Origin: Eubacteriales bacterium
GTDB taxonomy: Bacteria > Bacillota > Clostridia > Oscillospirales > CAG-272
Direction: 5' to 3'
NCBI GenBank assembly: GCA_045603085.1
Contig: JAZULL010000132.1
Span: forward strand, 10,575 to 74,574
DNA length: 64,000 nt
The position numbers and the translations under genes are program-made. Below the pieces are notes generated by a model that worked only from the letters and a program-made list of their open reading frames with translations, searched no databases and was not told the DNA's origin. Shown one piece after another: positions 37,607 through 57,044 of the stretch (positions are counted from its first letter, which is position 1; each line of letters begins with the position of its first letter).

Positions 37607-37631
37607 AGTGGGTTTCCTTTCATTATGTAAA

Positions 37632-37943
37632 TCATGCTGTCGTCTTTCTGTTCTGCTCACACATGCAAATGCCAATCAGGTCGTCGCCGTGGCAATAATG
37701 TGCGCAATCCACACAACAGCCCTCTATGAAGCGACTGGTACCGTATCGGCACAGCTCCTGCATCTGTGTTACGAAGGGGCGACCGTCGTCTGTGTACAGA
37801 GGGTTTAACTTGAAATCGGGATAAATGGGTATCGGAGCGCCTTGGGCTCTTTCAAATTCCTCGTAGTACCCGTACCGCAATTCGAATTGCTTTCCAAACA
37901 CCGTCAACATCTTAAAAACGTCGCCGTCTCTTATCTGATTCAT
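37632..37943 (-). CDS. small Cys/His-rich protein (103 aa), first gene of the giant-protein operon
   Basis: GGAGA RBS. The C-terminus reads CRYGTSRFIEGCCVDCAHYCHGDDLIGICMC. The stop is 25 nt before the 2537-aa gene. Confidence 0.6.
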   Translation of the reverse strand: MNQIRDGDVFKMLTVFGKQFELRYGYYEEFERAQGAPIPIYPDFKLNPLYTDDGRPFVTQMQELCRYGTSRFIEGCCVDCAHYCHGDDLIGICMCEQNRKTTA

Positions 37944-37969
37944 TCTTCATCGTCTCCTTTCGGGGGCAA

Positions 37970-38010
37970 GAAAAAATCCTGCATACTTTTCTTTAACAGT
38001 ATACAGGATT
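37970..38010 (-). terminator. intrinsic terminator after the LuxR-type gene
   Basis: AATCCTGTATAC...GTATGCAGGATT followed by TTTTTT on the minus strand. Confidence 0.7.
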
Positions 38011-38078
38011 TATATGTGATTTTGTACCACCCAATGCAGCAAATAAAGCACATTTATTTTTATACCTTACAGGGGGGA

Positions 38079-39299: not shown

Positions 39300-39360
39300 A
39301 AATTCTCCTTTATCATATATGTACATATATGCTTAAACTACATTGTACGCATACCGCCGC

Positions 39361-39439
39361 TTCGTTTGAACGAATTTTGTTTACGTCGATTTTTCGTTCT
39401 AACGAAACTCCTGCTTCTATTATACTTCGTTCTAACGAA
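39361..39439. promoter_or_regulatory. three phased 14-bp palindromic operators TTCGTT-NN-AACGAA
   Basis: Perfect copies lie at 39361-39374, 39393-39406 and 39426-39439, spaced 32-33 bp apart. Copy 1 overlaps a putative -35 (TTCAAA-17-TACAAT) for the regulator gene. Confidence 0.65.
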
Positions 39440-39493
39440 ATTGTCAACACTTTTGGGGAAAATAATGCCATCATTTTTGTATTTACGATAGAA

Positions 39494-39527
39494 GGTGTCA
39501 CCGGTTCAAGTCCAGTAGGGGGAGCCA
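39494..39527 (+). other. tRNA 3'-end remnant (T-arm, acceptor 3' strand, CCA), putative att-site scar
   Basis: ACCGG-TTCAAGT-CCAGT-AGGGGGA-G-CCA. No complementary 5' acceptor strand (TCCCCCT) exists upstream, so this is not an intact tRNA. It sits at the GC-to-AT compositional break. Confidence 0.55.
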
Positions 39528-39530
39528 ACG

Positions 39531-39554
39531 AAAAAAGCAGGCCGAGTGGCCTGC
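39531..39554 (-). terminator. intrinsic terminator (minus-strand orientation)
   Basis: GCAGGCC-actc-GGCCTGC followed by TTTTTT on the minus strand. Confidence 0.65.
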
Positions 39555-39620
39555 TTCGTTGTGCTCGTAGGACAAAATTGCAACTCAAGCGATATAATGT
39601 TATTCTTAAAAAGAGACTTC

Positions 39621-39690
39621 TATAAAGGCTTTTAGAAACCAAAAATACCTGGCATCTAAACTACAACAGTTCGGATCACAAGGTCTTTTC
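39621..39690 (-). repeat. cassette-boundary repeat, copy A (short form, hairpin-terminator core)
   Basis: TATAAAGGCTTTTAGAAACCAAAAATACCTGGCATCTAAACTACAACAGTTCGGATCACAAGGTCTTTTC aligns with copies B and C. It lies immediately 3' of the RloC-like gene. Confidence 0.7.
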
Positions 39691-39702
39691 CAAATACGAT
39701 TA

Positions 39703-42270
39703 CTAGACACCCATGCGTTTGTTGTATTCTGTCACCCAAACGCGAAAAGCTTCTACATCTTTTTTGAAATCTTCAATATCTACAATGACCGGAGCTGAAT
39801 CCTGAGGTTGAGAGTGCTCAAAATATGAATACTTCGTCATCATACTTTCGATAATCTCGCAATCTTCAACCCTGATATTAGCTAGTTTTTTGATGATTCC
39901 TTGCGTTCTTATTTGCTTATCAAATCTTTGAACAGATTTTAGAATCAAAACATCTTCCACAGAACGTTCAACCAGTATTCTAAATCTTTTGTATTCGGTG
40001 TCTATAGCATGTTGATATTCTTCAGAATCTTCATCTTTTTTCTTAATTTGAGCTATTGCATCCAAAATGCCACTCAACTGACTTTTTATTTTTCCATGAT
40101 ATAAATCCTCAAAATCTGGAAGTCCCTTGTATTTTGAACCCGCACGAATGTGGCACTCTTTAAAAGCAACTGACATTTCCTTACAACATGTCGAAAGGCC
40201 AACCAATAAAGAAATCCTATGCGTAAATACAATGACCTGTCGTGTTTGAGACATTTCAACAATTCTTTTGGTCGCATATTCTTCGTAATTGCAATCAAGC
40301 GATGATATAGGATCGTCAATGATAACAGGACTCAAGGCATCTCGTCCTGTAGCATCAGCAAAAAAAGCCGCTAAAGCTACAATTCTTTGCTCACCTTCGC
40401 TCAGAATGTCCTCAGGTTTTGCGCTTGTTTCATCAGTAATAAGCTTTATTCTGTAAGGCGACTTACCTTTCGTAGATGGCGCTTTCTCCAATTGAACCTT
40501 CAACCTGGGAGCCATTCTTTTTAGTTCGGCAGCAAAGCGTTCAATATATGATTCTGTGATCAGTATATCTGCTAGTTCATTGCTTTGACTGGTTATTTTA
40601 TTCGTTTTTACTAAAGTTAGTGAATCATCTAAAACTTTCATTTCAGATTTGTTAGAGATCACCCTTTTTATATTCTCTTGATTGTCTGCAATCCATTTAT
40701 GACACTCTAAGCATTCAAGTTCGCTACGTAAAATCTCTTGCGCCCCATCCTTTAAAGTATCTGTAAGATTTTTATACTCTTTTTCAAGATAGCACTTAAC
40801 AGAAACGAGTTCTTTTACGGCTGTGTCAACATCAATTTTTTGCAAAGAAATATAGCATTCTTCAGCTGTTTTTATATCTGAAAATTCTATACTCTTTTTA
40901 TAAAAATCAAATGTAGCATTGAACGAAAATCCTTCAATGTATTTACCTAGAGCATGCTCCACTCTATTAAAATTGAAATCTCGTTTTGCAAGTAATTTGC
41001 ATAAAGCAAAAAATTTGTTTTCTTTTTTTTCAAGATTTTCACTACATTGCCCATTGACATAATTATCGATAGAAGAAAATCTTTTCAAAGCATCGTCGGA
41101 TAATTGTTGATTGCAAAGAGGACATATTGAACCGCTGCCCGCGTATTCGATTCCAGTCTTGGGCTGAAGAGTTGAAACATAATACTGTTTGGCATATTTC
41201 CACAGTTCCCTCCAAGCAACCAACTTAACACTGCAATTATCATTTTCGTTTGCAGCTTCGCTAAACATTTTTTGGGATAAACCATACGCCTCTTTTGCTT
41301 CAACGTACTCTTTATACATTTCACAAATATCATGTTTGTTGTATACTGTCTGTGCAGTCACGAGATCTTCTAAAATTTGAGTAACTTCGCCGAGTCGTTC
41401 ACTTATTGTTTTGATTTTCTGATCAATAAACTCACGGTTTAATACTGCCGAAATTTCAGATAATCTATTTTCTTGTTGCTCTGTCCAATTCAAATACTTA
41501 TCATCAAACACGGTATTGCTTTCAATGCTTTTTACCCACTGTATGTTTGAATACGACCCAATTGAAGAAGGCACTTGTATAGTAATCTTTTCGAGAGCTT
41601 TTTTTCGAGATAAAATTTTAGCTTTTATTCTTTCAGCTATATTTGCTAATTCAGTTAATACAGAAAACACAAAAGGCTCGTAAGAAACCTTGTTAGATGA
41701 TGTAACGTATGCTCCAGATATTTTAGTATCGAATACATCGCAAGATGTGAGTGCCGGGTGCTTTTCTTCCTTCGACAAATCGCAAGTTATAGTTTTGGTT
41801 TCTCCGTTTTGCGAAACTTCAATTTTGCATGTCGGTTTTCCCGAACCACTTTTTTCAAACACATTTGCTTGTATAAGATCCGCATACGGTGTTCCGCTTA
41901 CTCTTTTAAACATTCGCATAAAGCTCGATTTACCTGTGCCATTAGCTCCATATACAACCGTTACGCCTTTTTCCGCAAAAGAAAGCTGAGCTTTCGAATC
42001 AAGGGCGTTTACACCACATATATCAAATATTTTAAGTATAGATAACTGTTCTAAAACCGTGCTTGGCAAGGTTTCTTGGCTTTTAAGTTCTTTATAATCA
42101 ACGATTTCTTTTTTTGTTTGCTTAATGCACATATCTGCATATGCTTCAATTTGTGCATCCTCGATAGGTTGGGAGTTGTATATTCTCCATACAGCATCCC
42201 TAAGCCAGTACGGTTGATTATGCATCCATTTTTCAAACTTACCATACATTGCATTTGCACTCTCAGTCAT
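39703..42270 (-). CDS. RloC/PrrC-like AAA_13 ABC-type ATPase with coiled-coil CxxC hook (candidate anticodon nuclease / abortive-infection protein)
   Basis: - Walker A: YGANGTGKSSF.
- CxxC motif mid-protein, within a long helical region: GSICPLCNQQL.
- Signature-like: SEGEQRIVALAAFFA.
- Walker B: VIIDDPISSLD.
- H-loop: VIVFTHR.
- C-terminal R-x-x-x-E (RILVE) plus FEHSQ, reminiscent of the PrrC nuclease triad.
- Start trimmed to the ATG at 42270, which has a GGAG RBS. Confidence 0.65.
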   Translation of the reverse strand: MTESANAMYGKFEKWMHNQPYWLRDAVWRIYNSQPIEDAQIEAYADMCIKQTKKEIVDYKELKSQETLPSTVLEQLSILKIFDICGVNALDSKAQLSFAEKGVTVVYGANGTGKSSFMRMFKRVSGTPYADLIQANVFEKSGSGKPTCKIEVSQNGETKTITCDLSKEEKHPALTSCDVFDTKISGAYVTSSNKVSYEPFVFSVLTELANIAERIKAKILSRKKALEKITIQVPSSIGSYSNIQWVKSIESNTVFDDKYLNWTEQQENRLSEISAVLNREFIDQKIKTISERLGEVTQILEDLVTAQTVYNKHDICEMYKEYVEAKEAYGLSQKMFSEAANENDNCSVKLVAWRELWKYAKQYYVSTLQPKTGIEYAGSGSICPLCNQQLSDDALKRFSSIDNYVNGQCSENLEKKENKFFALCKLLAKRDFNFNRVEHALGKYIEGFSFNATFDFYKKSIEFSDIKTAEECYISLQKIDVDTAVKELVSVKCYLEKEYKNLTDTLKDGAQEILRSELECLECHKWIADNQENIKRVISNKSEMKVLDDSLTLVKTNKITSQSNELADILITESYIERFAAELKRMAPRLKVQLEKAPSTKGKSPYRIKLITDETSAKPEDILSEGEQRIVALAAFFADATGRDALSPVIIDDPISSLDCNYEEYATKRIVEMSQTRQVIVFTHRISLLVGLSTCCKEMSVAFKECHIRAGSKYKGLPDFEDLYHGKIKSQLSGILDAIAQIKKKDEDSEEYQHAIDTEYKRFRILVERSVEDVLILKSVQRFDKQIRTQGIIKKLANIRVEDCEIIESMMTKYSYFEHSQPQDSAPVIVDIEDFKKDVEAFRVWVTEYNKRMGV

Positions 42271-42666
42271 TTTCTCCACTCCTTCACAAAACGTTCTGCT
42301 CGTTAATTAATTATAGCACTATTTAAGCGTAAATTCAATCAATTTTACAAAAAAAACACGTTTCTCGCGGCACTACTAACTAGTTGTGTGAGTGGATTTA
42401 TCCTCTATTTTACAGAATGCATTTACTACAATCTTCCCGTATATACCATTAGATTTTTACTTTCTTACATTTGGAGGCGTTATTAGAAAAACCACACCTG
42501 CCAAAAACGAATGAAAAGTGATAGAATCTATCCGAGCCTATCTTCTCACTTTTTAGTTAACGTTTCAATTGTGATTCTAATACCGAGTTTGATTGCGTAG
42601 CAGAATATTACACAATCACCATGACTTGCATACTTGCTCCAGCTTTCCCAAAGAAACGCTGTCCCC

Positions 42667-42858
42667 AAATCCTGAACAGCTTGATTCATATAATTGAAGA
42701 TGTTTTTATTTGCAAATCGATTTTGAGTAATTTTCAAAATTTTTTATTGGACACATCCATTGGCAGAATCCGTGAAAAAACATTGAAATATAAGGCTTTC
42801 GGGCACAAAAAAAGACCTTGCATCTAAACCGTAATGGTTCGGATTACAAGGTCTTTTC
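42667..42858 (-). repeat. cassette-boundary repeat, copy B (about 190 bp)
   Basis: Aligns over its full length with 46978-47167, including the hairpin AGACCTTG...CAAGGTCT plus T-run (minus strand) and the start of a mini-ORF (MNQAVQDL...). Confidence 0.75.
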
Positions 42859-42900
42859 ATTTTTCTGGCTCCCCATTATCAACCTAAATTGAACTGAACA

Positions 42901-45900
42901 TTAGTCCTCCTCATCTCTTTGCTTCATTCTTTGCATGTACTGGTGCTCCTTAATATGATGCATCGCTTCGTTTGTATAACTATCTGCGATATCACGCAAT
43001 GCTTCAGCGTATTTTGCGTACCCCATAGACTCGACCTTTTCGGCCATTTCGTTATATTTCTGTGCCAATTGCAATTCGGGTTTTCCTTCGGGATCTACTC
43101 TCACAACTCCTCTTTGATTAAATACTCCGATACAATACCCCCTTCTCATTTCATCATTTTCTACTTTGTTTAATTCGTTGATAATAAACTCGTCAATCAA
43201 ACCGTTTTCAAGCTTTTTCGCATGTGAAAGACCGCGCCCTATAGTTTGGAGGACGACTTCTTCTCGATCTTCTTCTTTCCCCCACTTTTTACAATATGTC
43301 ATCCAGGTTGAAAATATTTCTTCGTGATAGCATCCATTCCAATCTGTTCCTGGCACAACACAGAATTCGAATATCAGATGATATAGACGCTTTACGTCAT
43401 ATTCAGAAAGTTGTTCTTCATGAGTATCTGAATGCTTTTTTCTATAAACAAGCTTAATAAGTTCGCAGAAAAATTCAGGTTCGTTTGCAAGTCTATAACG
43501 CGTTGCCAATGGTTTCACCGAAGAATGATCATCAAGCCACAACAAATAAATCATCTCAATATCTGAAATTTCTTTTATACTTATGCTTCTCTCTTGCTGA
43601 AGCAAGCCAATTAAATTTATAACTGCATCTGGATCCAATTCGTCGTTGCTTTCGGTAGTAGCAGCTTTAATCAAAACTGTATATATCTCAGTATGAGAAA
43701 TATTACAATTTTCAACGGTATTTCCATACAAATTGACCGCTGCTGCGTATCGCTCTACTTTCACTAGGTTTTTCCAAACAATATCCGACTCAACACTATC
43801 GTCTAAACCAAAGCGGGGTATAAGAATAGCACGCCAAAACAAATCAAAGTTTTCTTGTAAGAGTTGCTCAGCGATTTCAAATAACCGCATTGACAACCTT
43901 GGTCTCGACAATACCCATGCTACGTAATTTGCGTCATAAGTATTAAACTTTGCTGAAGATAACGCCTCCGGACCGTTTACTATAACAAACCCATAGATGA
44001 CCGTAGCAAAAAAGGTTTTATCTATTTTATTTTCATAACAGAGTTGTACAAGCCTGAAAAATTCCTCCTCGTTTAATTTCATTCCTAAATGTTGAGCAAT
44101 CCAAGTTGGTTGACTCAGAGCCGTTCCAAATTCGACAACTGAATCTATACCAAATGTCGTAAATATCTCGTAAACTGCATTTTCCTGCTTATTTCGTTTA
44201 GCTTGCCATTTTGTCTCGAATTGATCATCTTCATCATAATCGATATACCCTGATTCATACAACAACCGATAACTATATCGAATATCAGTCGGAGCAGTCA
44301 ATGCAATACTGGAATCCAATATTTCTATCATAGATGAATCTATCTCATCTTCCGAGTGGTGTGTTATCCATTGTTTTTCAAAACAAAAAGCTTTCCAAAA
44401 CGGATATTTTTGAGAATCACCCCAATTTGCTGCTTTCACATTGACTAAAGAAAGGAATTCAATCATGGTTTCACGTCCCATATGATCAAAGTCGGATAAC
44501 AGGTCTTTCATTTTTTCATAATTTTCTTTAGCAAGAGACAAGGCTAATTGAGAGTAGTACTGGTATAAAGATGCAATGTCTTGATTCGAAAGTTTAATCT
44601 CCTTAGGCAAATTAGGTAGAATATATCGAGGACGATGTGTTCCCCCTGTCATGCGAGTAGCATGAGGAAGCAGTTGTGTGATGATCATCCAAGCAATTTC
44701 CGGACATTCGCGTTGTAACGCCATGAGTGCTGACTTCTGTTTTTCGACTGATGCCATTGTTTGTATATGCCATGGAAGCAAGATACTAACAATTGAATTT
44801 GTTGGCGTGTTTGAATAATTGGTTTTCTCATATTTTAAATTCGCTAACAGTCCCAATATTCTGATGCACTTAATCAAATGATCCTTATCCCAAGCCAATC
44901 CTTCAACTGACCATAATACTGAACAAATAGTATTTCGAGAGAATATTGGGTTGTCATTAGCCTTGGGAAATAATGCTTCGATACTTTGAGGAGATGTTAC
45001 GATTTGTTTCTCTAAACATTCTAAAAAAGTTTCTGGGCTTATTTCTGCAATCACAGGCAAATGCGATTCTAAACTTATCCAGACGGTTTTATCTGCATCA
45101 GTAAAAACTGCACGGATTAATTCTCTTGCCTTTGAGGCAATAAAATTCGATGAACATGATGTCTGCATTCCAATATTACAGATAATCGCTAAGCCGTGAA
45201 TCAATCCATTCCTAAGCGCATCAGAATGATCAAATGCACCGCCTTCCGGAGTCAGCCAATCAATATCACCGTTTTCTTTAATGCGTTTATCCTTTTCTTC
45301 TAAGACCGCTTTCGAGACCTCAAAGGCTTTTTTGATAATATCGTCAAAATAAGTTTTTGAACAAGATTGGATTATAGAACGTCTATGATTTATATGCCAT
45401 ATACCATCCATGAACGAAACATTGGGATCAGGCTGCAGAGAATCTTCTTGGAGTTTTCGTCGGATATCCGAATAATTCGTTTCCAATAAAGTTGCCAATA
45501 ACTCTTTATCATTACTATTCTTTTCATTCCATTCTCCCACCAAAGCGATCTTTGCCCAAAAGGAGTCATCAGAATAATCATGAGGTAGTTCTTTTGTCTC
45601 AACCAAATCAATTACACTGATAAATTTTTCTTTAATAAAATCCGGTATACTGCTTATCGTAACATACTTAGCGCTTCTATCATATCTGCTTGCCCAATCT
45701 ACGAGCAATGCCCACACTGACATTGCATCATCTTTACAATTAGACGCTATTAAGGATCGGATCAAAAAATCATTGATGCTACTTTCGTAGTCCAAATCAA
45801 AAATGAGAATTGTGAATATCTTGCAGAACGCCCATAGTTGCTCGTCTGTAATGTCCTGATTATTATTAGCCTGTGATAAGTGTTTTTTTATTATATCTAG

Positions 45901-46416
45901 TTTTTCTCTATTGGTATCACTGGAGTAATGAGGAGTTTGAATTCTATTTAAAAAGTCTCTGGCACTCGATGCACCATTAGCTTGATCATGAATAAAACGG
46001 AGCGAATCTTCATTGGCTACTGAACCTGAAATCAAAACGATTTTATCAGTGTTTGGATCAAATGTTTCTTTGTTAAAATCGCTCCAAGCAGCGGCAATTA
46101 CTTCTTTGAAAGCCGGATTGTCACCTATAGTTATTCCATGTTTTATTTGGCACAGCAGATTTGCTGAACGTGATTCTGCAGAAGCTGTCACAACAATATC
46201 ATCGATATCTTTACCAAGTCTTTTGGCTTGAAAATCTAGTGATGTTACAGGTAAGTCTAGTAAAGGAGAAAAACCTTTTACCAAAAGAGCAAGAATAAAT
46301 GTAGCTTGAACGCGGTGCTCAAAATCTACGCCACCTCCACCGGTAGAAAAAGGATTGCTAAGTTTTTTTACTGTTAGTCTATCTAAACTCTCGCCTCTCT
46401 GTGTTTGAGATGTCAT
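42901..46416 (-). CDS. 1171-aa protein: N-terminal PD-(D/E)xK-like (Cap4/DUF4297-style) nuclease motif, then about 1000 aa of helical repeats
   Basis: GGAGG RBS and ATG at 46416. The N-terminus reads STGGGGVDFEHRVQATFILALL...LDFQAKRLGKDIDDIVV...LLCQIKHG, giving an (E/Q)...DD...QxK pattern. There is no Walker A motif. The remainder is Leu/Ile/Glu-rich and helical. Confidence 0.5.
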   Translation of the reverse strand: MTSQTQRGESLDRLTVKKLSNPFSTGGGGVDFEHRVQATFILALLVKGFSPLLDLPVTSLDFQAKRLGKDIDDIVVTASAESRSANLLCQIKHGITIGDNPAFKEVIAAAWSDFNKETFDPNTDKIVLISGSVANEDSLRFIHDQANGASSARDFLNRIQTPHYSSDTNREKLDIIKKHLSQANNNQDITDEQLWAFCKIFTILIFDLDYESSINDFLIRSLIASNCKDDAMSVWALLVDWASRYDRSAKYVTISSIPDFIKEKFISVIDLVETKELPHDYSDDSFWAKIALVGEWNEKNSNDKELLATLLETNYSDIRRKLQEDSLQPDPNVSFMDGIWHINHRRSIIQSCSKTYFDDIIKKAFEVSKAVLEEKDKRIKENGDIDWLTPEGGAFDHSDALRNGLIHGLAIICNIGMQTSCSSNFIASKARELIRAVFTDADKTVWISLESHLPVIAEISPETFLECLEKQIVTSPQSIEALFPKANDNPIFSRNTICSVLWSVEGLAWDKDHLIKCIRILGLLANLKYEKTNYSNTPTNSIVSILLPWHIQTMASVEKQKSALMALQRECPEIAWMIITQLLPHATRMTGGTHRPRYILPNLPKEIKLSNQDIASLYQYYSQLALSLAKENYEKMKDLLSDFDHMGRETMIEFLSLVNVKAANWGDSQKYPFWKAFCFEKQWITHHSEDEIDSSMIEILDSSIALTAPTDIRYSYRLLYESGYIDYDEDDQFETKWQAKRNKQENAVYEIFTTFGIDSVVEFGTALSQPTWIAQHLGMKLNEEEFFRLVQLCYENKIDKTFFATVIYGFVIVNGPEALSSAKFNTYDANYVAWVLSRPRLSMRLFEIAEQLLQENFDLFWRAILIPRFGLDDSVESDIVWKNLVKVERYAAAVNLYGNTVENCNISHTEIYTVLIKAATTESNDELDPDAVINLIGLLQQERSISIKEISDIEMIYLLWLDDHSSVKPLATRYRLANEPEFFCELIKLVYRKKHSDTHEEQLSEYDVKRLYHLIFEFCVVPGTDWNGCYHEEIFSTWMTYCKKWGKEEDREEVVLQTIGRGLSHAKKLENGLIDEFIINELNKVENDEMRRGYCIGVFNQRGVVRVDPEGKPELQLAQKYNEMAEKVESMGYAKYAEALRDIADSYTNEAMHHIKEHQYMQRMKQRDEED

Positions 46417-46485
46417 ATGTTGCCTCCTATCTGTCTTATCATGTCCTTTTTTGAATCGATTCTTTACAACATTATCTGACACCTT

Positions 46486-46514
46486 ATTATACCATATAAC
46501 TATAAATTGCACAA
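46486..46514 (-). promoter_or_regulatory. sigma-70 promoter with extended -10
   Basis: The minus strand reads TTGTGC-17 nt-TGGTATAAT, about 65 nt upstream of the ATG at 46416. Confidence 0.45.
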
Positions 46515-46977
46515 TAGTTAATGTATGCATTATTATATATTATCCGCGGGCTCCCCCCTTCAGCCATGTTCAATGCAGCACAGATCTCTTAGATGTAAAT
46601 ATAAAAAATATCACTGAGAAATGAAATAGCAGTTCAAAGGCAGGTATCGATTGAAAATCTGCGCCAAGACTAATTCTCCACTCAGACAACAAGACAAATC
46701 TCACTTATTATACTTGCACAACATGTCTGAAAGAGTTCAGTGCCAAGCAATCACTTTCCCATGCGCAGAACTCCTACAACTATTTCGCTTGCGAATCATG
46801 TTCCAAGACTCTCAAGCAAGATTGAATATTCAGAAAAGACTTTCGTTCTGAAAAAATATGTTCCGTTCTATCACGTGATTTATGGAGTTTTAAAATAATG
46901 ATCGCCCACACTCAATGAACGGGTACTGAACACCAAATAAATGTGACGCTGACTACCATAAAAGAAAAGCCGTCCGG

Positions 46978-49924: not shown

Positions 49925-51568
49925 TTATTTATGTCTTTTCCTCCTTTTCAATTCTTCCTCAGCTCGATACCCACCTTTGAGAGTTATGACAATTTTTTTG
50001 TTTCCGCAGACTTGGACGCACTCAACCAACCTGCGAACAGTAACGTCATCAAACTCCGTAAAGTTCATATTCGTCTGTTTGAGAATATCCATTATTCTTG
50101 CAATCTCTGCATTAACAGACTCACTCTGTGCTGCTTGACTCTTGGCAAGGTCGAGTTTACCGCGAAGCACAACCAACTGATCGAACATCTTTTTCAGTTC
50201 GACCTCATATCTTTCGGGATCACCCTCGGTTCTTGCCGCAAGTTCGGTCATTTGCTGAATATCTTCCTTCAGCTCGTTCATCTGCCTTTCGATGGAAAAG
50301 ACATCAAGTGCTGCATTGTTTCCCGAGACCGCATAGGAAAGATTGCTTTGAATAAGGCTGAACACTTCCCCGCTGTTTGCCATCATCTTGGATAAGCAAC
50401 GACAAATGGCTTCGTGAAGCATCTGCTCCTCTATCCCTGCCGAGTCCTTGCAATATGTTCTACCGTGTTCGATACGGCTCACACATCTCCAATAGTAAGT
50501 AGTCTTGCCTTTGGCACTTTTGGAGGTTCTACGAAAAGAACCACCGCAAGACCCGCACACAAGCAATTCTGTAAGGGCATATTTCGCACTGTACTTTCCC
50601 TGCTCGGTAACAGCAGAATCGAGTTTCTTTCTCTTATTGTTTCTTCGTGCAAGCTCAGCTTGTACCAAGTTGAAGGTATCACGGTCAATAATCGCAGGGT
50701 GATTGTTGGAGATCAGATATCTCGTTACTTCACCGCGATTGACCTTTGCCTTTTTACTGATACAATCGGTACGGAAGGTCTTTTGATAAAGAACGTCACC
50801 GACATACTTTTCATTGGAAAGCATATATCGAATAACCGAGATTGACCACACATCCTTCCCTTCCGGTGTTTTGATATTATTAGACTCAAGGAACTCCTTT
50901 AACTGTCCGAGACTTGCTCCATCGAGGATCATTCGGAAAAGTGCTCTCACGACCTCGGCTTCATCTGCAACAATATACGGATTTCCATCGTCACCCTTCC
51001 TCAGACCAAGCATTTTGAAGCGGAGAGAGTAAGTTCCGTTCTTCATTCTCTTTTGGATACCCCACTTGACGTTGGCGCTGATACTCTCACTCTCGGATTG
51101 TGCCATAACGCTGAAGAAGCCAAGTAAGGTTTCATTCTCTGCTTTCAAGGAGTCGAGGTTCTGTTCCTCAAAGTACACGCCGATACCCATAGCGCGGAGT
51201 TTTCTGATCCAAGTCAAGCTGTCGACCGTGTTTCTCGCAAAACGGGTGGTGGATTTGGTCAGTATCATATCGACCTTCCCTTTTTCACAATCGCGCATCA
51301 GTTTAAGGAACTTCTCACGCTTGTCTGTTCGGGTTCCCGTGATACCTTCGTCTGCGTAGATACCTGCCATCGTCCAATTCGGGTTTTCAGCGATCTTCCC
51401 GGTATAGTATTTCACCTGCGTATCCAAGCTGTTAAGCTGATCTTCTTCATCGGTGGAAACACGGCAATAAGCCGCCACTCTCATTCTTCTGTATTCATCC
51501 TTCCTGCTTGTGAGTGCAGGATTGGCTTCTATCTTTGTTATTGTTCTTACGGGTGCGTATTCGCTCAT
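49925..51568 (-). CDS. large serine recombinase
   Basis: Catalytic motif VAAYCRVSTDEEDQLNSLDTQ, a recombinase domain, a Cys zinc-ribbon (CGSCGGSFRR...YYWRC) and a C-terminal coiled coil. Confidence 0.9.
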   Translation of the reverse strand: MSEYAPVRTITKIEANPALTSRKDEYRRMRVAAYCRVSTDEEDQLNSLDTQVKYYTGKIAENPNWTMAGIYADEGITGTRTDKREKFLKLMRDCEKGKVDMILTKSTTRFARNTVDSLTWIRKLRAMGIGVYFEEQNLDSLKAENETLLGFFSVMAQSESESISANVKWGIQKRMKNGTYSLRFKMLGLRKGDDGNPYIVADEAEVVRALFRMILDGASLGQLKEFLESNNIKTPEGKDVWSISVIRYMLSNEKYVGDVLYQKTFRTDCISKKAKVNRGEVTRYLISNNHPAIIDRDTFNLVQAELARRNNKRKKLDSAVTEQGKYSAKYALTELLVCGSCGGSFRRTSKSAKGKTTYYWRCVSRIEHGRTYCKDSAGIEEQMLHEAICRCLSKMMANSGEVFSLIQSNLSYAVSGNNAALDVFSIERQMNELKEDIQQMTELAARTEGDPERYEVELKKMFDQLVVLRGKLDLAKSQAAQSESVNAEIARIMDILKQTNMNFTEFDDVTVRRLVECVQVCGNKKIVITLKGGYRAEEELKRRKRHK

Positions 51569-52437
51569 GCCGTTTTATCCTCCGTTTCTATGTTCGTTAC
51601 CTCTGCGTGATTGATAAATGTGACGGTCAGCGTTCCGTCTCTGTTGACCGCTATCTTCTGTACCGTTTCCCGTATCAGCATTATGTCAAGTTCGGTGATA
51701 ATCGGCAGATTGCGATACTTGTCCATCAGAGCTTCGGTCATTCCTCTGCTTCTGTCAAGAGGGCAGCACTCATATTTGTGTTCAACACATTTGAGTATCA
51801 TCTTGGAAAGAACACCAAACTCAACGTCCGTCTGTTCCTTGACTCTCTCAATCTCCTTGTTCTGTCGTATAACCTCCATCGAGGGAGAATACTCAATGTT
51901 GGAAGTATTCAATCGCAAAAGCTCGGGATTGTTTCGCACCCGATTCAAGATAATGAGCATGGCTGTAAAGATCTCTCTGTCACCCAAGTATATATCCACC
52001 TTACAACCGCTTGGGCAAAGCCATTTTTCTCGGCTTCTCCACTTGTTGCGGCGCCCCATATTCTGACCGCAGCAGGAACACACTAATTTACTTTTGATAA
52101 GTGTGGTAATCTCGGGGAGCTCGGTCTGTGTGCCACCCATATCCGACTTTCTTTTGTTGGCGAGATCAAAATCGGTCTGCGATATGATGGCGGGATAACC
52201 GTCTGCCCCTGCGTATTTCGGATTTGCTATGATACGGGAGATCAAGTTTTTCGTCCACACAGATTTATCAAGATAGTAGATAACTCCCTGCTCTGTCAGT
52301 TCGGCGGCAATAGCCATTAATGACTTACCGCCTATGTAATCTGCGAAGATGTCGCGGACTACTTTGGCTTCAAATTCAAGAATAACGGGCTTGCCGTTCT
52401 TGACTTCATATCCGTAAAGTATGGTTCTTAAACTCAT
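51565..52437 (-). CDS. recombinase-domain/zinc-ribbon protein lacking the N-terminal resolvase catalytic domain
   Basis: The protein starts directly with YGYEVKNGKPVILEFEAKVVRDIF (recombinase domain), followed by CSCCGQNMGRR...WLCPSGC. There is no RVST catalytic serine motif. ATGA overlaps occur on both sides. Confidence 0.8.
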   Translation of the reverse strand: MSLRTILYGYEVKNGKPVILEFEAKVVRDIFADYIGGKSLMAIAAELTEQGVIYYLDKSVWTKNLISRIIANPKYAGADGYPAIISQTDFDLANKRKSDMGGTQTELPEITTLIKSKLVCSCCGQNMGRRNKWRSREKWLCPSGCKVDIYLGDREIFTAMLIILNRVRNNPELLRLNTSNIEYSPSMEVIRQNKEIERVKEQTDVEFGVLSKMILKCVEHKYECCPLDRSRGMTEALMDKYRNLPIITELDIMLIRETVQKIAVNRDGTLTVTFINHAEVTNIETEDKTA

Positions 52438-54002
52438 GCCGCGACACCTACGCTTTCTTTCAAATTCAGACCACCTTTAAGTACAAAGGTGATGGTTCCG
52501 TTATCGTCCGCCTTAATTCTTTCAACGATTGATGTAAAGAGGTTTTCATCAAAGGAAAGAATGGCGGGAGGATAACTCTGCAACAGTTCTTTGAGGAATC
52601 GGAGATCTTCAATGTAGTGAGTATCCTCATCTTCACTAATCAGCTTCAAACGGCGGTTGCGGAGTGTTGTGATTCTGTTTTGCAGTTCCGCCGTTTGCTC
52701 TGCGTATGAGACCTCATCCATAATGTTCTTCGCACGAAATTTAGAGTACATATCGTTCTGTGACCAGAGCTTTGCGATCTCCGCATCTATCTGTGCAATC
52801 TCTTGGCTACCCGAGACAAGCCTTGTGCGAATGTCGATGAGCTGTGTCAGCGTGTTATCGACAAGCAAGGTCTCATATTGGCGTAAGCGATTATACATTA
52901 TAATAAAGGAAGAAAAGATCTCGCTTTCAAGGAGGTTCTTCCCTCCGCACTCATGCCCGGAATTACCTTTTCGGGAGCAGACCCAATAGGTAATACCGTT
53001 CTGCACTCTACGCTTATACGCCCATCCGCACTCATCGCAATAAATCATTCGGGTAAGCAAATACTGTTGCTTGGGGTTCTTTGGCGCATACTGTTCTCTC
53101 TCCTTGAGTCTCTGCTGCGCTACTTCAAAGACTTCTCTGCTGATAATGGCAGGGTGAGAGTTGGTAACATAGAACTTGTCCTTTTCTCCGTTGTTCTTGC
53201 GGTTACGCAAGGGTAAGATCTCGGGAGTAAAGGTCTTTTGGAGAAGTGCGTCACCGATATATTTTTCATTGGAGAGGATATATCGGATGTGCGCCTTGTT
53301 CCATTTACCTTCGCGCGAGGGTACGCCTTCACGGTTCAAGATTGCCGAGATCTGCCCCATTCCTTTCCCTGCGAGGTACATATCGAAGATACGGACAACG
53401 ATTACCGCTTCTTCCTCAACAATGACAAGAGAACCGTTTTCAAGTCGATAACCGTATGGAGCGCAGTAGGTAATGAAGTTACCCTCCTCCATCTTCATTC
53501 GGTACGACATTGCCATTCTCTTGGAGAAGTTCAAGGAATCGTTTTGAGCAAAGGCGCTCTTGATATATAGGATCATTTCAGAACTCATCGACCTTGTGTC
53601 GATCCTATCACTCTCAAAGTAAACGCTTGCTCCGTAGTCTGCGAGTTTTCGCACCGACTCCAAACATTCAAGAGAGTTTCTTGCGAAACGCTGAACGCTC
53701 TTAACATAGATACGGTCGATCTTGCCGAGCCTTGCATCGTTCAACATTCGCTTAAAATCGTCTCTTTTATCCAAGCTCGTTCCCGTTATGCCCTCATCGG
53801 CGTAAATATCGACAAGCTCCATCTTGTCTGATGTGCGGATGAAATCGGTGTAGTACCTCACTTGGTTCAGAAAGGAATTAACTTGGTCGTCGGAATCGGT
53901 ACTTACACGACAGTATGCCGCAACTCTTTGGACTCTCGCATTTGCGGAGTATTCCGCAAGCGGACGTATGATTTGTACTTGTTTTTCTGTGGCTACATTC
54001 AT
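52434..54002 (-). CDS. large serine recombinase
   Basis: Catalytic motif VAAYCRVSTDSDDQVNSFLNQ, a recombinase domain, CDECGWAYKRR...YWVC, and a coiled-coil tail. Confidence 0.9.
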   Translation of the reverse strand: MNVATEKQVQIIRPLAEYSANARVQRVAAYCRVSTDSDDQVNSFLNQVRYYTDFIRTSDKMELVDIYADEGITGTSLDKRDDFKRMLNDARLGKIDRIYVKSVQRFARNSLECLESVRKLADYGASVYFESDRIDTRSMSSEMILYIKSAFAQNDSLNFSKRMAMSYRMKMEEGNFITYCAPYGYRLENGSLVIVEEEAVIVVRIFDMYLAGKGMGQISAILNREGVPSREGKWNKAHIRYILSNEKYIGDALLQKTFTPEILPLRNRKNNGEKDKFYVTNSHPAIISREVFEVAQQRLKEREQYAPKNPKQQYLLTRMIYCDECGWAYKRRVQNGITYWVCSRKGNSGHECGGKNLLESEIFSSFIIMYNRLRQYETLLVDNTLTQLIDIRTRLVSGSQEIAQIDAEIAKLWSQNDMYSKFRAKNIMDEVSYAEQTAELQNRITTLRNRRLKLISEDEDTHYIEDLRFLKELLQSYPPAILSFDENLFTSIVERIKADDNGTITFVLKGGLNLKESVGVAA

Positions 54003-54068
54003 ATTCGTGTCGCCCTCCTTTCGACCATGATTATACTGATTTTTGAGAATCCCGCAAGGATGCGATTA

Positions 54069-54224
54069 TTATGCGATTTCTACCGCTGTGCATCCCATTG
54101 TTTCTGCGTTTTTCTTGTTAAGTCTATCAATGACTTTTCGTTCTACCTTTCCCGATCTGAGCAATCTGCGAAGCACATCGACAGATGCGAGGTAGATCAT
54201 TTGTTTTCTTACTGCTTCACTCAT
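54069..54224 (-). CDS. small hypothetical protein (51 aa) abutting the MazF stop
   Basis: My hand translation gives MSEAVRKQMIYLASVDVLRRLLRSGKVERKVIDRLNKKNAETMGCTAVEIA*. The ATG directly follows the mazF-like TAA (TAAATG). It is below the ORF-track length cutoff. Confidence 0.45.
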   Translation of the reverse strand: MSEAVRKQMIYLASVDVLRRLLRSGKVERKVIDRLNKKNAETMGCTAVEIA

Positions 54225-54572
54225 TTACTCTACCCCCATACTGGTTTTCAGTGCTTGATCGACAGCCGCCATCGACTCTTTACTCGCCCGTCCAACGTAG
54301 TGGATGAGCCTTGACTTATCTACGGTTCGCACCTGCTCGGCAAGTACAATCGACCTCATAGGAAGATCACTACTCTCAATAGGAATATGCGTAGGCATAA
54401 ACTTTTTCTTTTGACAGCGACTTGTAATGGCAAGCACTATAACCGTTGGGCTATGCGTGTTTCCTGCGTTATTTTGAATGACCAACACGGGGCGCTCTCC
54501 GCCCTGCTCTGACCCTACCACGGGATCGAGGTTAGCGATGTAAATCTCACCGCGTCTGATTTTTCTTTCCAT
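54225..54572 (-). CDS. MazF/PemK-family endoribonuclease toxin
   Basis: RGEIYIANLDPVVGSEQGGERPVLVIQNN...VIVLAITS...IVLAEQVRTVDKSRL is the canonical PemK/MazF pattern. I trimmed the start to the ATG at 54572, which has a GGAGG RBS. Confidence 0.85.
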   Translation of the reverse strand: MERKIRRGEIYIANLDPVVGSEQGGERPVLVIQNNAGNTHSPTVIVLAITSRCQKKKFMPTHIPIESSDLPMRSIVLAEQVRTVDKSRLIHYVGRASKESMAAVDQALKTSMGVE

Positions 54573-54885
54573 AAATATGAACCTCCTTTGAATTGCCACA
54601 ATCGGCTATGTATGAGGAGAACCGCCTCAATAATCGGGCGGTTCTCTTGTCATGAAATGAAAGGAATATACTGCTTCAGTTTCACATTCGAAGAGCAATT
54701 CAAGAGTGCTGTATTTGCTCCGAGGATGCTTTTGCGATACTAACTAGTACCTATGGTGCCCGTGCATGATTACACCGCAACACGCCCTAATCGAATCTGT
54801 AATTCTCTAATCCTCAAGATTCTTTTTTCAAACTATGCAAACGCGTCTTCGGTCAGCAGCGGGATAATTTATCCAAACTTGAAAG

Positions 54886-55269
54886 TTACTTCACATTAGA
54901 CTCCGCCCAGCAAGTAGCTTTGCTTCTCAAAACAAGATACAGAAGATAATCTCTAAATTCCTCGCAAATCTGCTGATTGGTATTGATTCTGTAGCAAAAC
55001 ACAAGGAAGTAAAAGATCGCTTCTCTGTCATCACCGATACAAACCTCAATCTTGTTGCCTGCCTTTTCGCTTGTGTAAACGCAAGGCTTTCCGTTCAACC
55101 AACGGCGAATGTTCCGATCCTGATCCTTGAATATCTTTTCAAGTTTGCGCAGCGCCCACTTGCCGTTGTTGGTGAATGTGATCTCTGCCTGCTCGTCAAG
55201 GTGGTTATGTTGCGCGTCGATTGCGTTCATTACCGCGTTCATGTAGTTGTTAAATGCTCTGAAGTTCAT
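54886..55269 (-). CDS. hypothetical protein (127 aa), small mobile-element-associated protein
   Basis: GGAGG RBS and start MNFRAFNNYMNAV. I cannot assign a family with confidence; it may be TnpV-like. Confidence 0.55.
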   Translation of the reverse strand: MNFRAFNNYMNAVMNAIDAQHNHLDEQAEITFTNNGKWALRKLEKIFKDQDRNIRRWLNGKPCVYTSEKAGNKIEVCIGDDREAIFYFLVFCYRINTNQQICEEFRDYLLYLVLRSKATCWAESNVK

Positions 55270-55299
55270 TTTTCTTTCCTCCGTTTTTCTTTTGATAGC

Positions 55300-55660
55300 A
55301 TAATTAAATACCCACAACCATATGGTTCTTCCCATCAAAGGTACGGGTATGTATCCGAGCCGCCGCAGGCAGACCTATGTGGAAATTGTTCTGCCGTTTT
55401 ACCTTTGGCTCTTAACACACCTATTTGTCCTCGACACCCCAGTGTGACCGAACTATGTTCAGCGTAGGAAGTCATCAAGCGTCCGATTACGAGTCGGCTA
55501 CATAGGAATCTCACCTCCCCCGGGTACTCCGCGGGCAGCGCCTTTCGGCTACTGAAGTATCATTATCCCTCACGTTTGTCATCGCCCTCTGTCGGTGGTA
55601 ATCCGACTTCACTCAAAGTATCGTTTGATCGCTCCCTCCTTGAAGGGAGATCTTGGCGCA
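55300..55660 (-). ncRNA. candidate structured RNA / long structured leader (unclassified)
   Basis: About 360 nt with no credible ORF on the gene strand, and visibly more GC-rich than its flanks. The region is dense in helices: CUCCCU/AGGGAG, UGAAGU/ACUUCA, CGG/CCG, GCC-GAAA-GGC, CUAUGU/ACAUAG, CCGA/UCGG, CACAC/GUGUG, GGCAGA/UCUGCC and AUACCC/GGGUAU. It begins GUGCGCC. Confidence 0.4.
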
Positions 55661-55753
55661 CCTTTTGAGCTTGGCTTGTTTACTCATCGCAAAACTAACG
55701 TGGGTAAAGTGCTTAATGAATGGTATTCAATTGTCGTTTTTTCTGCTTCTCCT

Positions 55754-56086
55754 TTACTTACTGGCAATCGGATTGGAATACTTTTTGATGATGCCTTGTA
55801 AAATAGCAAGTTCCTCTCCTGCTACCGTTTCGGATAACCGCTTCAGCAAGTCGATCTGCACAGGACTCATGTATTTGAGACCGAGAGAATACCCCTCTGC
55901 AATCCGTACACCGCCGCCTGTGCCTCTCGACGTTTCAATGGGGTATGAACACATGAGGATCTGCAAATCGCGATCCACGGTATTTTTTGACACTTTGAAC
56001 TCCTGCATCAGTTTCGATCTCGTAGTTGATCTGACTTCACACAGATATTCAAGCATCAGCTGACGTCTTTCGGTCGCAGCCTGCAT
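55754..56086 (-). CDS. HTH (DeoR/HTH_11-like) DNA-binding protein (110 aa)
   Basis: GGAGG RBS. MQAATERRQLMLEYLCEVRSTTRSKLMQEFKVSKNTVDRDLQIL is a winged-helix DeoR-type N-terminus. Confidence 0.65.
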   Translation of the reverse strand: MQAATERRQLMLEYLCEVRSTTRSKLMQEFKVSKNTVDRDLQILMCSYPIETSRGTGGGVRIAEGYSLGLKYMSPVQIDLLKRLSETVAGEELAILQGIIKKYSNPIASK

Positions 56087-56280
56087 GTATTCACACCTCC
56101 TTTCTTTGCTTTGTGGCAATATTTTACAAGGACAACTCCCCACCTAATGGGGAGTTAGAAAAAACATTTTCGTTTTTTAGAGCTTTTTTGCGGTTATTGG
56201 CATTTTATCAGCTAAGCCAACTGAAATTCAATGAAATTTACTGAATTATACTGAAAATAACTGTTGATTGCGAACCAACG

Positions 56281-56357
56281 AAAACGAAAAGAAGCCGCCG
56301 ACGCGACAGATCATCCTATGGATATTCCATAAGACTTTCTATCGTATCGGCGGCTTC
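56281..56357 (-). terminator. terminator-like long hairpin with nested palindrome
   Basis: An 11-bp stem GAAGCCGCCGA/TCGGCGGCTTC encloses a 45-nt loop that contains TATGGA-TAT-TCCATA. It is followed by TTTTCGTTTT on the minus strand. Confidence 0.5.
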
Positions 56358-56519
56358 ACATCATTGTTTTCGCAGTCCTGGCATTGCCAACCAATTGTAA
56401 AGTGAGATCCATCAGACGGCTTATGTAAGCTCTGTTTCGGCTCGGCGTCTTGAACTATTCACCTTTTCATATTCAATTCAATAGATGTAACCGTTTGGCG
56501 TAAATTAAGACAGTATGTA

Positions 56520-56720
56520 TCATTCTTTCTCTTGCTTCTTTCCTTTCGGCACGATCAACTCTATCGTATTATGCCGACGGCTATGGTGTGACCGTACCAT
56601 CATGACTCGGCAATTATCACACCGAAAATGGTGTTCGCCATTCTCAAGCGTTTGCCCAATGTTTAAAGTTCCACAGTTCGGGCAATAGATCTGAATAATC
56701 GATAAATCTGTTTTTGACAT
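56520..56720 (-). CDS. small zinc-ribbon protein (66 aa)
   Basis: CPNCGTLN...FRCDNCRV gives two CxxC pairs. This is a common small ORF type in Firmicutes mobile elements. Confidence 0.6.
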   Translation of the reverse strand: MSKTDLSIIQIYCPNCGTLNIGQTLENGEHHFRCDNCRVMMVRSHHSRRHNTIELIVPKGKKQEKE

Positions 56721-57044
56721 CTTTTTTCCTCCTGTAATTTCTAAAGCAAAAAAACAAGCCTAAAACACCTATTCGAACAAATAAGTGTTTTAGGCTGTAT
56801 TTATGTATGTGTCACGAAGCGTGAGTTCACTCTCGAAAGTATAGATTACCTCATACAGAGCAAGACTTTTTTTAACCGCAGTTTGATTTTATTCATACTA
56901 TAATCCTCCGTGCATAATGATAATGTGAACTATTTGTGTAAGTCAGTTGATGTGTCGTCTCCTTTAACTATTTCAAAGTGAACTGTATAATGTTGGCAAG
57001 TGAAATATTACTTCACTTTCAATATTAGAAAGGATAGCACCCAG

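Follow-up and report, generated by a model that had tools for sequence, protein, structure and literature searches.

What lies in the long gap at the head of a serine recombinase operon in a Clostridial mobile element, and what might it do? The gap is in a 64 000 nt stretch of contig JAZULL010000132.1 (assembly GCA_045603085.1, from an Eubacteriales bacterium), hereafter the window, where it separates a gene for a helix-turn-helix (HTH) regulator from a gene for a 127-aa protein. A sequence-only reading of this DNA had described a gap of about 480 nt that is poor in open reading frames (ORFs) and has a GC-rich core, and both descriptions hold. The gap is 484 nt (55753-55270, minus strand); its only gene-strand ORFs are short (32, 33 and 59 aa) and none of them is conserved, homologues differing by hairpin-sized indels; and the GC content over 55350-55600 is 0.50-0.58 compared with 0.35-0.41 in the flanks. 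The same reading offered a choice between a novel large leader or non-coding RNA and the relic of a group II intron. We found that the gap encodes a conserved, structured, non-coding leader or intercistronic RNA; it is not novel, as it belongs to the catalogued pemK RNA family. The pemK RNA is homologous to canT, an antiterminator in Tn916, and on the strength of these sequence comparisons we favour, with moderate confidence, the reading that the gap RNA is a cis-acting, structured, canT-type antiterminator leader of a Clostridial integrative mobile element.

The pemK RNA and its larger fold

When the full 64 kb window was scanned against Rfam at gathering thresholds, exactly one family was returned, the pemK RNA (RF02913). 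The match, at 55500-55566 on the minus strand, spans the full model (positions 1-61 of 61; 67 nt in the window) and scores 70.1 bits against a cut-off of 34.8 (cmscan; E value 1.4e-10). A permissive scan (E<=10) restricted to 55100-55900 added only a sub-threshold match to the dinG RNA and a chance THF-II fragment. No group II family (RF00029 and the D1D4 families) was returned, either by this permissive scan or, at gathering thresholds, anywhere in the 64 kb. A tRNA-like element was considered and rejected: ARAGORN found no gene in 54000-57000, there is no Rfam tRNA match in the window, and only the third hairpin of the motif resembles a T arm. Thus, the window RNA is a further copy of the pemK family, a candidate cis-regulatory RNA from the survey of Weinberg et al. 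2017 (PMC5737381), the main text of which never mentions pemK. A literature search found no functional study of the motif, and Rfam types the family as Cis-reg. As its name suggests, the family lies upstream of, and codirectional with, pemK or DNA-binding protein genes in Firmicutes. The window agrees with this placement, PemK (PF02452, E 7e-36) being encoded by the second gene downstream.

Homologues were collected by several routes. A genome scan with the 127-aa protein returned only two loci, near-identical in the gap and therefore free of covariation. BLAST searches of annotated plasmid and phage collections with the gap gave one partial match each; these served as seeds but were too few on their own, and further loci were gathered by a scan of viral contigs with a core pattern. 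When the gap was used as an nhmmer query, about 45 loci aligned from gap position 95/96 (window 55659) on to positions 270-330. This start coincides with GUGCGCCAAGAU (55660), the very point at which the sequence-only reading had placed the beginning of the region. At the other end, the 18-mer GGGGYGTCGAGGACAAAT, from a conserved 19-nt loop, alone found 81 viral-contig stretches, against approximately 5 estimated by chance. In an Rfam rescan of homologous loci, including loci found only via the 18-mer, all had a pemK match where it was expected (18/18; 42.8-72.9 bits, all above the gathering score). The final family profile gave 148 matches in 204 loci; the 106 full-length ones form 36 clusters at 90% identity. 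They stem from mobile elements of gut Clostridia, including Eubacteriales metagenome-assembled genomes (MAGs) and Subdoligranulum.

Comparison with the nearest homologue, L002 (an Eubacteriales MAG), revealed 96.3% identity across 55661-55416, compared with 87% in the 3' spacer and 87-91% in flanking coding DNA; the 127-aa protein of L002 is 68% identical to that of the window. The conserved domain is bounded by 55661 and 55416 (approximately 245 nt), and conserved leader sequence extends upstream to about 55737. The parts of the domain, all on the minus strand, are as follows.

55416-55661, minus: whole folded RNA domain, made up of 5' CGCC, P2, GAGCGA, P3, GGCGAUGAC, the pemK core, P7, UUGAUGACUUCC, P8, and Px with its 19-nt loop
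55658-55655, minus: 5' CGCC, candidate P1 strand
55635-55650, minus: P2 hairpin (UCUCC / GGAGG), with compensatory changes in RNAalifold; 4/5 pairs change on both sides
55634-55629, minus: GAGCGA, conserved string after P2
55591-55607, minus: P3 hairpin (GUCGG / CCGAC), 87% paired, 5/5 pairs with changes on both sides
55601-55598 (UUAC, P3 loop) with 55490-55487 (GUAA, P7 loop), minus: kissing loop, from covariation
about 55586-55578, minus: GGCGAUGAC, conserved string
55500-55566, minus: pemK core (RF02913), AUAAUGAUACUUC and then three abutting hairpins, Pa, Pb and Pc
55554-55536, minus: Pa, core hairpin 1, with GCC-GAAA-GGC as its tip
55535-55518, minus: Pb, core hairpin 2
55516-55504, minus: Pc, core hairpin 3, T-loop-like in a by-eye reading of alignment A3
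55482-55498, minus: P7 hairpin (GCCGA / UCGGA), 96.6% paired, 5/5 pairs compensatory
55478-55467, minus: UUGAUGACUUCC, a UGAUGAYUUCC string conserved in A3
55462-55448, minus: P8, a variable hairpin, 52% paired, of varying length and poorly aligned
55416-55446, minus: Px hairpin (CACACU / GGUGUG), 91.7% paired, 6/6 pairs compensatory
55440-55422, minus: near-invariant 19-nt loop GGGGUGUCGAGGACAAAUA, enclosed by Px

Alignments (A2 and A3) were made with MAFFT L-INS-i, and a structure of 52 pairs was tested on 37 non-redundant sequences against 500 shuffles and slid controls. Paired cells made up 83.7% compared with 65.2% in the shuffles, and the covariation score of 0.470 (0.173 in the shuffles) was reached by 0/500 of them, with slid controls at 0.117 or less. 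The sequence-only reading had seen dense helices here, and the comparative data support that view. The fold of the single sequence does not: its minimum free energy is -138.3 kcal/mol (z = -1.73), and 4/100 shuffles fold as well, which is not clearly beyond chance. As the single-sequence fold is unconvincing, we rest the structure on the comparative data.

The most telling element is the kissing loop, which first surfaced as a top long-range covarying pair and joins sequence 5' of the Rfam motif to sequence 3' of it. Its cells are 92.6% paired, and each of the four pairs shows changes on both sides (for example UA 19 / AU 8 / GC 6, and CG 30 / UA 5); the consensus is UUGC/GCAA, and the combinations UGGU/ACCR and CAGC/GCUG are also found. 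Across the 37 sequences the core hairpins covary, as does the pair that closes the core (55555-55503, U-A in the window; UA 25 / CG 11). The 7-nt loop of Pc fits U-K-N-R-A-N-Y by eye, and in L153 it reads GGUUCGAUUCC. P2 is only 66% paired in A3 because its loop region is poorly aligned, and in P8 a U-to-C change in L002 converts a U.G to a C-G pair. A long-range helix P1, between the 5' CGCC (55658-55655) and a GGYG in the Px loop (55438-55435), is 93.9% paired with changes on one side only. Some 5' variants break this pairing, and Tn916 has CGCC without the loop; P1 is compatible with the data as a candidate helix. G.U pairs are frequent on the gene strand in the conserved helices, which identifies the gene strand as the folded one and favours RNA over DNA. 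We conclude that the Rfam motif is the core of a larger conserved, covarying fold of approximately 245 nt.

Among the individual pairings picked out by eye in the sequence-only reading, the GCC-GAAA-GGC tetraloop hairpin proved real and sits at the tip of Pa, the first motif hairpin. The others fared worse. The proposed CUAUGU/ACAUAG pair is broken in L002, the closest homologue (CUAUGG / ACAAUG); CUUUG/CAAAG belongs to the 3' spacer, where conservation is poor, and finds no comparative support; and the UGAAGUC segment, thought to switch between two partners, is not conserved.

Homology to canT of Tn916

The canT element of Tn916 is an orientation-specific, cis-acting, processive antiterminator and is most likely an RNA (Wirachman and Grossman 2024, PMC11658703). 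It is needed both for read-through of the terminator T1 and for conjugation; it acts on heterologous terminators with a lacZ reporter and needs no Tn916 gene to do so, and excision is unaffected (PMC11658703). Two mutations delimit it: canT(S3) replaces ATA by TGC at a site that begins 283 nt past the orf8 stop, canT(delta162) lacks +229 to +390, and both leave less than 5% reporter read-through (PMC11658703). According to its authors, secondary-structure predictions for canT could not be interpreted, and their paper mentions neither Rfam nor pemK (PMC11658703). No later paper linking the pemK motif and canT was found in a literature search.

In L205, the Tn916-family copy on pCF10, the gene order is orf7 (sigma), orf8 (HTH), spacer, xis, int, and the spacer is canT. 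RF02913 matches this orf8-xis spacer at L205:2323-2423 (55.0 bits, E 5.9e-9), and our extended family profile matches L205:2226-2423 (E 3.8e-15), covering CGCCAUGAC, P2, GAGCGA, P3 and the core. Both published mutations hit the matched structure. The canT(S3) site corresponds to L205 2323-2325, the AUA that begins the invariant AUAAUGAUAC, and this AUA is also present in the window at 55566-55564. The canT(delta162) deletion corresponds to L205 2269-2430 and takes out P3 and the whole core. The pCF10 record still lists L205 2266-2517, in the canT region, as an opposite-strand coding sequence for a 'hypothetical protein', so that an RNA is mis-annotated as coding.

The position of the RNA among genes is conserved across the family. 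In the 106 loci with a full-length match, the gene before the RNA most often encodes a protein resembling sigma-70 region 4 (61) or an HTH protein of the XRE type (20). Downstream of the RNA, the first gene codes for PemK in 49 and DUF6870 in 40 (PF21757, E 5e-28), followed by ParA (4), the 127-aa protein (3), a ParB-like protein (2) and a tyrosine integrase (1). Recombinase genes lie within 4.5 kb downstream in 74/106 loci. PemK is encoded somewhere downstream in 61/106, and in 45/106 there is no PemK gene within 4.5 kb. The orientation of the RNA is always that of the downstream genes. The distance to the first of these varies from 4 to over 300 nt, with the start codon at most 34 nt from the Px loop in a quarter of the loci. 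In the window, the order is HTH gene, RNA, 127-aa gene, PemK, 51-aa ORF and serine recombinases.

Signals and genes around the RNA

Around the folded domain, the following signals and genes were identified.

55703-55737, minus: conserved promoter-like or operator block ACGACAATTGAATACCATTCATTAAGCACTTTACC, identified in the upstream flanks of 36 cluster representatives
55673-55690, minus: conserved leader segment GCGAUGAG...AGCC, immediately 5' of the folded domain
55348-55353, minus: UACAUA box 1, in the spacer that leads from the folded domain to the 127-aa gene
54646-54617, minus: 10-bp GC-rich hairpin that precedes UACAUA box 2
54612-54607, minus: UACAUA box 2, after the hairpin and directly ahead of the ribosome-binding site (RBS) of pemK
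55754-56086, minus: upstream regulator gene of HTH_DeoR/HTH_11 type, 110 aa from ATG, stop at 55754-55756
54886-55269, minus: first downstream gene, 127 aa, ATG at 55269, with homologues in L001, L002 and L003
54225-54572, minus: PemK/MazF-type toxin gene, likely start ATG 54572 (PF02452, E 7e-36)
54069-54224, minus: 51-aa ORF of no known family, between the PemK gene and the recombinases
52434-54002, 51565-52437 and 49925-51568, minus: large serine recombinase genes (Pfam Resolvase, Recombinase, Zn_ribbon_recom)

The promoter-like block has the consensus CCTTGAMAAnTGAATAnnCATTCATCAGGTACATTCC and precedes the RNA in almost all clusters. The same block, CTTTGAAAACTGAATA, is found upstream of the Tn916 canT core (L205 2165-2180). 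It includes a -35-like TTGAMA without a canonical -10 at 16-18 nt. The sigma-region-4-like proteins, whose genes lie immediately upstream, could recognise this block. A promoter scan found no canonical sigma-70 promoter inside the gap, and an internal UAUAAU/GAUAAU string was rejected as one, as it has no rightly spaced -35 in the window. Sigma-70-type promoter-like sites are predicted upstream of the HTH gene (56274-56245 and 56231-56202), as is a terminator-like site (56309-56295). Between the promoter-like block and the domain, the pattern (C)UGAUGA-N-AGCC of the leader segment recurs in L003, L052, L024, L102, L166, L200 and others.

UACAUA is over-represented in the spacers between the domain and the first gene of the cluster representatives (24 in 5.8 kb, where a uniform expectation is 1.4; background on the same strand of the loci, 0.31 per kb), an enrichment of approximately 13-fold. 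Most loci have UACAUA or a near variant in this spacer, usually right after a stable hairpin, and in most of the family a module of hairpin, UACAUA and RBS leads into pemK or the first gene (L107, L003, L052, L024, L102, L166, L133, L194, L148, L130, L153, L200, L138 and others). By eye, the box has no consistent partner hexamer that would make it a -10 or -35 element. MazF/EndoA of Bacillus subtilis cuts strictly at UACAUA, a site that it has in common with the Listeria and Staphylococcus aureus enzymes (bioRxiv 10.64898/2026.08.06.743204).

The product of the regulator gene matches PF08220 (E 4e-8) and PF08279 (E 8e-8), and the 127-aa protein matched no Pfam or NCBIfam family. The likely PemK start is preceded by the RBS AAAGGAGG (54589-54582). 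The closest solved relatives of this PemK are B. anthracis PemK (4HKE), S. aureus MazF (4MZM) and B. subtilis EndoA (4MDX), each with E of about 1e-30. By eye, no MazE/PemI-type antitoxin gene was recognised upstream of pemK, the neighbouring ORFs having been run against Pfam only in part; in the window, the 127-aa (54886-55269) and 51-aa (54069-54224) products are antitoxin candidates. In L194, L157, L158, L177, L190, L128, L196, L138, L141 and L176, pemK follows the RNA directly. The L138 toxin is fused to a Zn-ribbon-like tail that in L177 is a separate 66-aa ORF.

Beyond PemK, the rest of the operon occupies 49925-54224 on the minus strand. Of the three recombinase ORFs, the middle one (51565-52437, 290 aa) carries the Recombinase domain alone, with no catalytic resolvase domain, and shares 4 nt with the end of the 522-aa recombinase gene. 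Flanked by two complete large serine recombinases, it may represent a gene that was truncated or split. Further downstream (29993-46530, minus) are a 2560-aa ORF (29993-37675) and a 1209-aa ORF (42901-46530), both without Pfam families, and an AAA_13/SMC-like 858-aa ORF (39703-42279, minus); these large ORFs may represent cargo or a defence system. The HTH gene is preceded by a 66-aa Zn-ribbon ORF (56520-56720, minus) with weak Com-like and Zn-ribbon Pfam matches. Comparable small CxxC...CxxC proteins hold the same relative position in loci of the L017/L056 type, where they adjoin an ImmA/IrrE-like protease gene and a divergent XRE gene. In L102, a ParA/ParB-type element, a tRNA gene (6065-6138, minus, in locus coordinates) lies approximately 0.9 kb from the pemK-type RNA, with a tyrosine integrase gene as its neighbour; the integration site at the end of the element may be marked by this tRNA gene.

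Proposed antitermination, its alternatives and known systems

By homology to canT, the window copy most likely acts in antitermination, and its action could be pictured as follows. Transcription would start at the promoter or promoters of the upstream regulator gene or at the conserved promoter-like block. The RNA would fold co-transcriptionally into a compact domain, with the three-hairpin core and its T-loop-like arm held by the P3-P7 kissing-loop clamp, and with a 3' hairpin that displays the invariant 19-nt loop. It would then stay bound to its own RNA polymerase and render it terminator-resistant, so that the PemK and recombinase genes and, after the element circularises, whatever lies further on would be reached only by transcripts begun at the regulated promoter of the element itself. 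Such a mechanism is indirectly supported for the family by the enrichment of terminator-like hairpins 3' of the RNA: hairpins with a U-rich tail and -15 kcal/mol or stronger were found within 120 nt in 11/35 representatives, compared with 0/34 in control coding DNA 1.2 kb downstream.

Several points tell against this picture. Antitermination was demonstrated for Tn916 only, in B. subtilis (PMC11658703). From the window RNA to the last recombinase gene, the gene strand has no predicted strong intrinsic terminator, and the hairpin at 54646-54617 lacks a U tract. In some homologues an RBS follows the domain by only 25-35 nt or so, which would suit translational or stability control too, and Rfam files the family merely as 'Cis-reg'. 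The Tn916 RNA, moreover, has no recognisable P7-to-Px 3' domain or 19-nt loop, so the two RNAs could differ in mechanism or partner.

The alternative to which we allow a modest chance is a cis-regulatory leader that acts on the translation or stability of the next gene's mRNA and not on the polymerase. A ligand, as in a riboswitch, or a protein would bind at the conserved unpaired stretches or the 19-nt loop and so expose or hide an RBS or a processing site. The large, complex fold with strongly conserved unpaired nucleotides would suit this, as would the short distance from the Px loop to the start codon in a quarter of the loci and the Rfam type. The domain also holds Shine-Dalgarno-like (GGAGGUGA, GAGGA) and anti-Shine-Dalgarno-like (ACUUCC) strings. 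By eye, there are two candidates for a covarying partner of GGAGGU, a near one (UCCU/UCCC) and a distant one (ACUUCC/AUUCCC), and the sub-threshold dinG model takes the distal pairing. However, the first gene (PemK, DUF6870, ParA, ParB-like or 127-aa) and its distance both vary, which makes a platform that sequesters a fixed RBS unlikely, and the Tn916 homologue acts on foreign terminators and lacZ without Tn916 genes (PMC11658703). As for a riboswitch, the fold is aptamer-like in complexity, but spacer, first gene and start-codon distance all vary widely and the gene context hints at no ligand. That the RNA is instead a partner of PemK is improbable. It would be either an antitoxin or decoy of a type III-like kind or a substrate cut at UACAUA, so setting toxin and recombinase levels. 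In the 49/106 loci where pemK directly follows, the RNA occupies the slot usual for MazE/PemI, with no antitoxin recognised by eye. Moreover, the UACAUA sites enriched between the RNA and the first gene are those cut by the related B. subtilis MazF, the window has its two boxes at 55353-55348 and, before the pemK RBS, at 54612-54607, and its PemK resembles EndoA, S. aureus MazF and B. anthracis PemK. Set against this are the 45/106 loci with no PemK within 4.5 kb, the stretch of Tn916 examined, which also lacks PemK, and the weak association of box and PemK among cluster representatives (2x2 table 14 / 8 / 8 / 6). The tandem repeats of type III (ToxI-like) systems are also missing from 55200-55800, where Tandem Repeats Finder returned no repeats at minimum scores down to 30.

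A single-stranded DNA element (a single-strand origin or promoter of a conjugative element) would fit the mobile-element context, the UAUAAU/GAUAAU string and GAGCGA, which we take to resemble the CS-6 box of ssoA. We regard it as very improbable, as the frequent sense-strand G.U pairs would be C.A mismatches in an Frpo-type element folding from the template strand, the RNA invariably points the same way as the genes that follow it, and the Tn916 homologue is active in a chromosomal reporter with no transfer taking place (PMC11658703). A decayed protein-coding gene or an overlooked small ORF is hardly credible: gene-strand ORFs of 32-59 aa are present and the Tn916 counterpart was long annotated as 'orf5', but homologues differ by hairpin-length indels and paired compensatory substitutions, not by third-position changes, and mutations in the start and stop codons of orf5 in Tn916 had no phenotype (PMC11658703). 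The sequence-only reading had itself proposed to compare homologous gaps and look for covariation, and that comparison shows conservation of both sequence and structure, and a region that does not look like a gene in decay. The intron relic, a supposed fragment of domain I, can be dismissed with near certainty. It sprang from that reader's impression of short GC-rich strings and from nothing else, and these strings turn out to be helix strands of pemK type (ACCCGGGGGAGGU, in motif hairpins 2 and 3), and AUAGGUGUGUUAAG, likewise described as intron-like, holds the 3' strand of the strongly covarying Px. Besides the negative Rfam scans for group II families, there is no domain V, no reverse-transcriptase ORF and no other intron-encoded protein, the neighbouring ORFs being HTH, 127-aa and PemK. 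A different, well-scoring family with covarying helices fully explains the region, and the 96.3% identity to L002 shows that the domain is under constraint.

Antitermination and the toxin could also be joined, in a more speculative proposal that we consider unlikely. The whole pemK family would be a canT class of polymerase-riding antiterminators with a tertiary fold of approximately 250 nt, and its PemK-bearing subfamily would be toxin-gated: PemK, an EndoA-type enzyme with relatives that cleave U^ACAUA, would cut the conserved UACAUA box immediately 3' of the domain, sever the RNA from the polymerase and so control read-through into recombinase and transfer genes. In loci without a recognisable protein antitoxin, the RNA might also be a decoy for the toxin. 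The UACAUA boxes beside an EndoA-like toxin with no evident antitoxin are a separate lead in any case.

The window copy itself is ordinary, and what it yields as useful by-products are the link between pemK and canT, the fold of approximately 245 nt with its kissing loop, and the UACAUA boxes. The link gives the orphan pemK motif a testable function, and the family in turn gives canT more than 100 homologues and a covariation-backed model with a 5' domain, three-hairpin core, kissing loop and T-loop-like arm. The RNA heads toxin and recombinase operons in the mobile elements of many gut Clostridia and, if it is an antiterminator, would be part of what keeps excision and transfer genes silent until the element's own promoter fires.

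Among known systems, put of phage HK022, EAR of the B. subtilis eps operon and conAn2 of pLS20 are likewise cis-acting structured leaders said to make the polymerase terminator-resistant, and conAn2 also heads the operon of a mobile element. However, conAn requires a protein partner, ConAn1, and we found no relationship in sequence or structure between any of the three and the window RNA (for EAR, no Rfam match in the window); they are analogues, not relatives. The dinG RNA (RF03082) is closer. It shares the 5' AAUGAUACUUC and the two next hairpins, and its match (55467-55564, minus) overlaps that of pemK. Its 26 bits are below the gathering score of 46.9, a longer hairpin with GGAGGU paired to the distal ACUUCC takes the place of the local T-loop-like third one, and Rfam types it as sRNA. 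Thus, dinG is probably a related family of which the window RNA is not a member. With the pemK RNA itself, the window shares the invariant AUAAUGAUACUUC, the three abutting hairpins closed by a U-A pair, and a place ahead of a pemK gene in the mobile element of a Firmicute. The difference is one of extent: the Rfam model has 61 positions, whereas the conserved covarying unit of approximately 245 nt adds the 5' domain (P2, GAGCGA, P3), P7, the P3-P7 kissing loop and the 3' hairpin with the 19-nt loop. From canT of Tn916, the window RNA differs further in its surroundings, as canT has no UACAUA box and precedes xis and a tyrosine integrase, while the window RNA precedes PemK and serine recombinases. 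Nevertheless, the long Pa insert of Tn916 is nearly identical to that of the family member L200, and both RNAs occupy the same slot, with regulator genes before them and a recombination module after them on the same strand.

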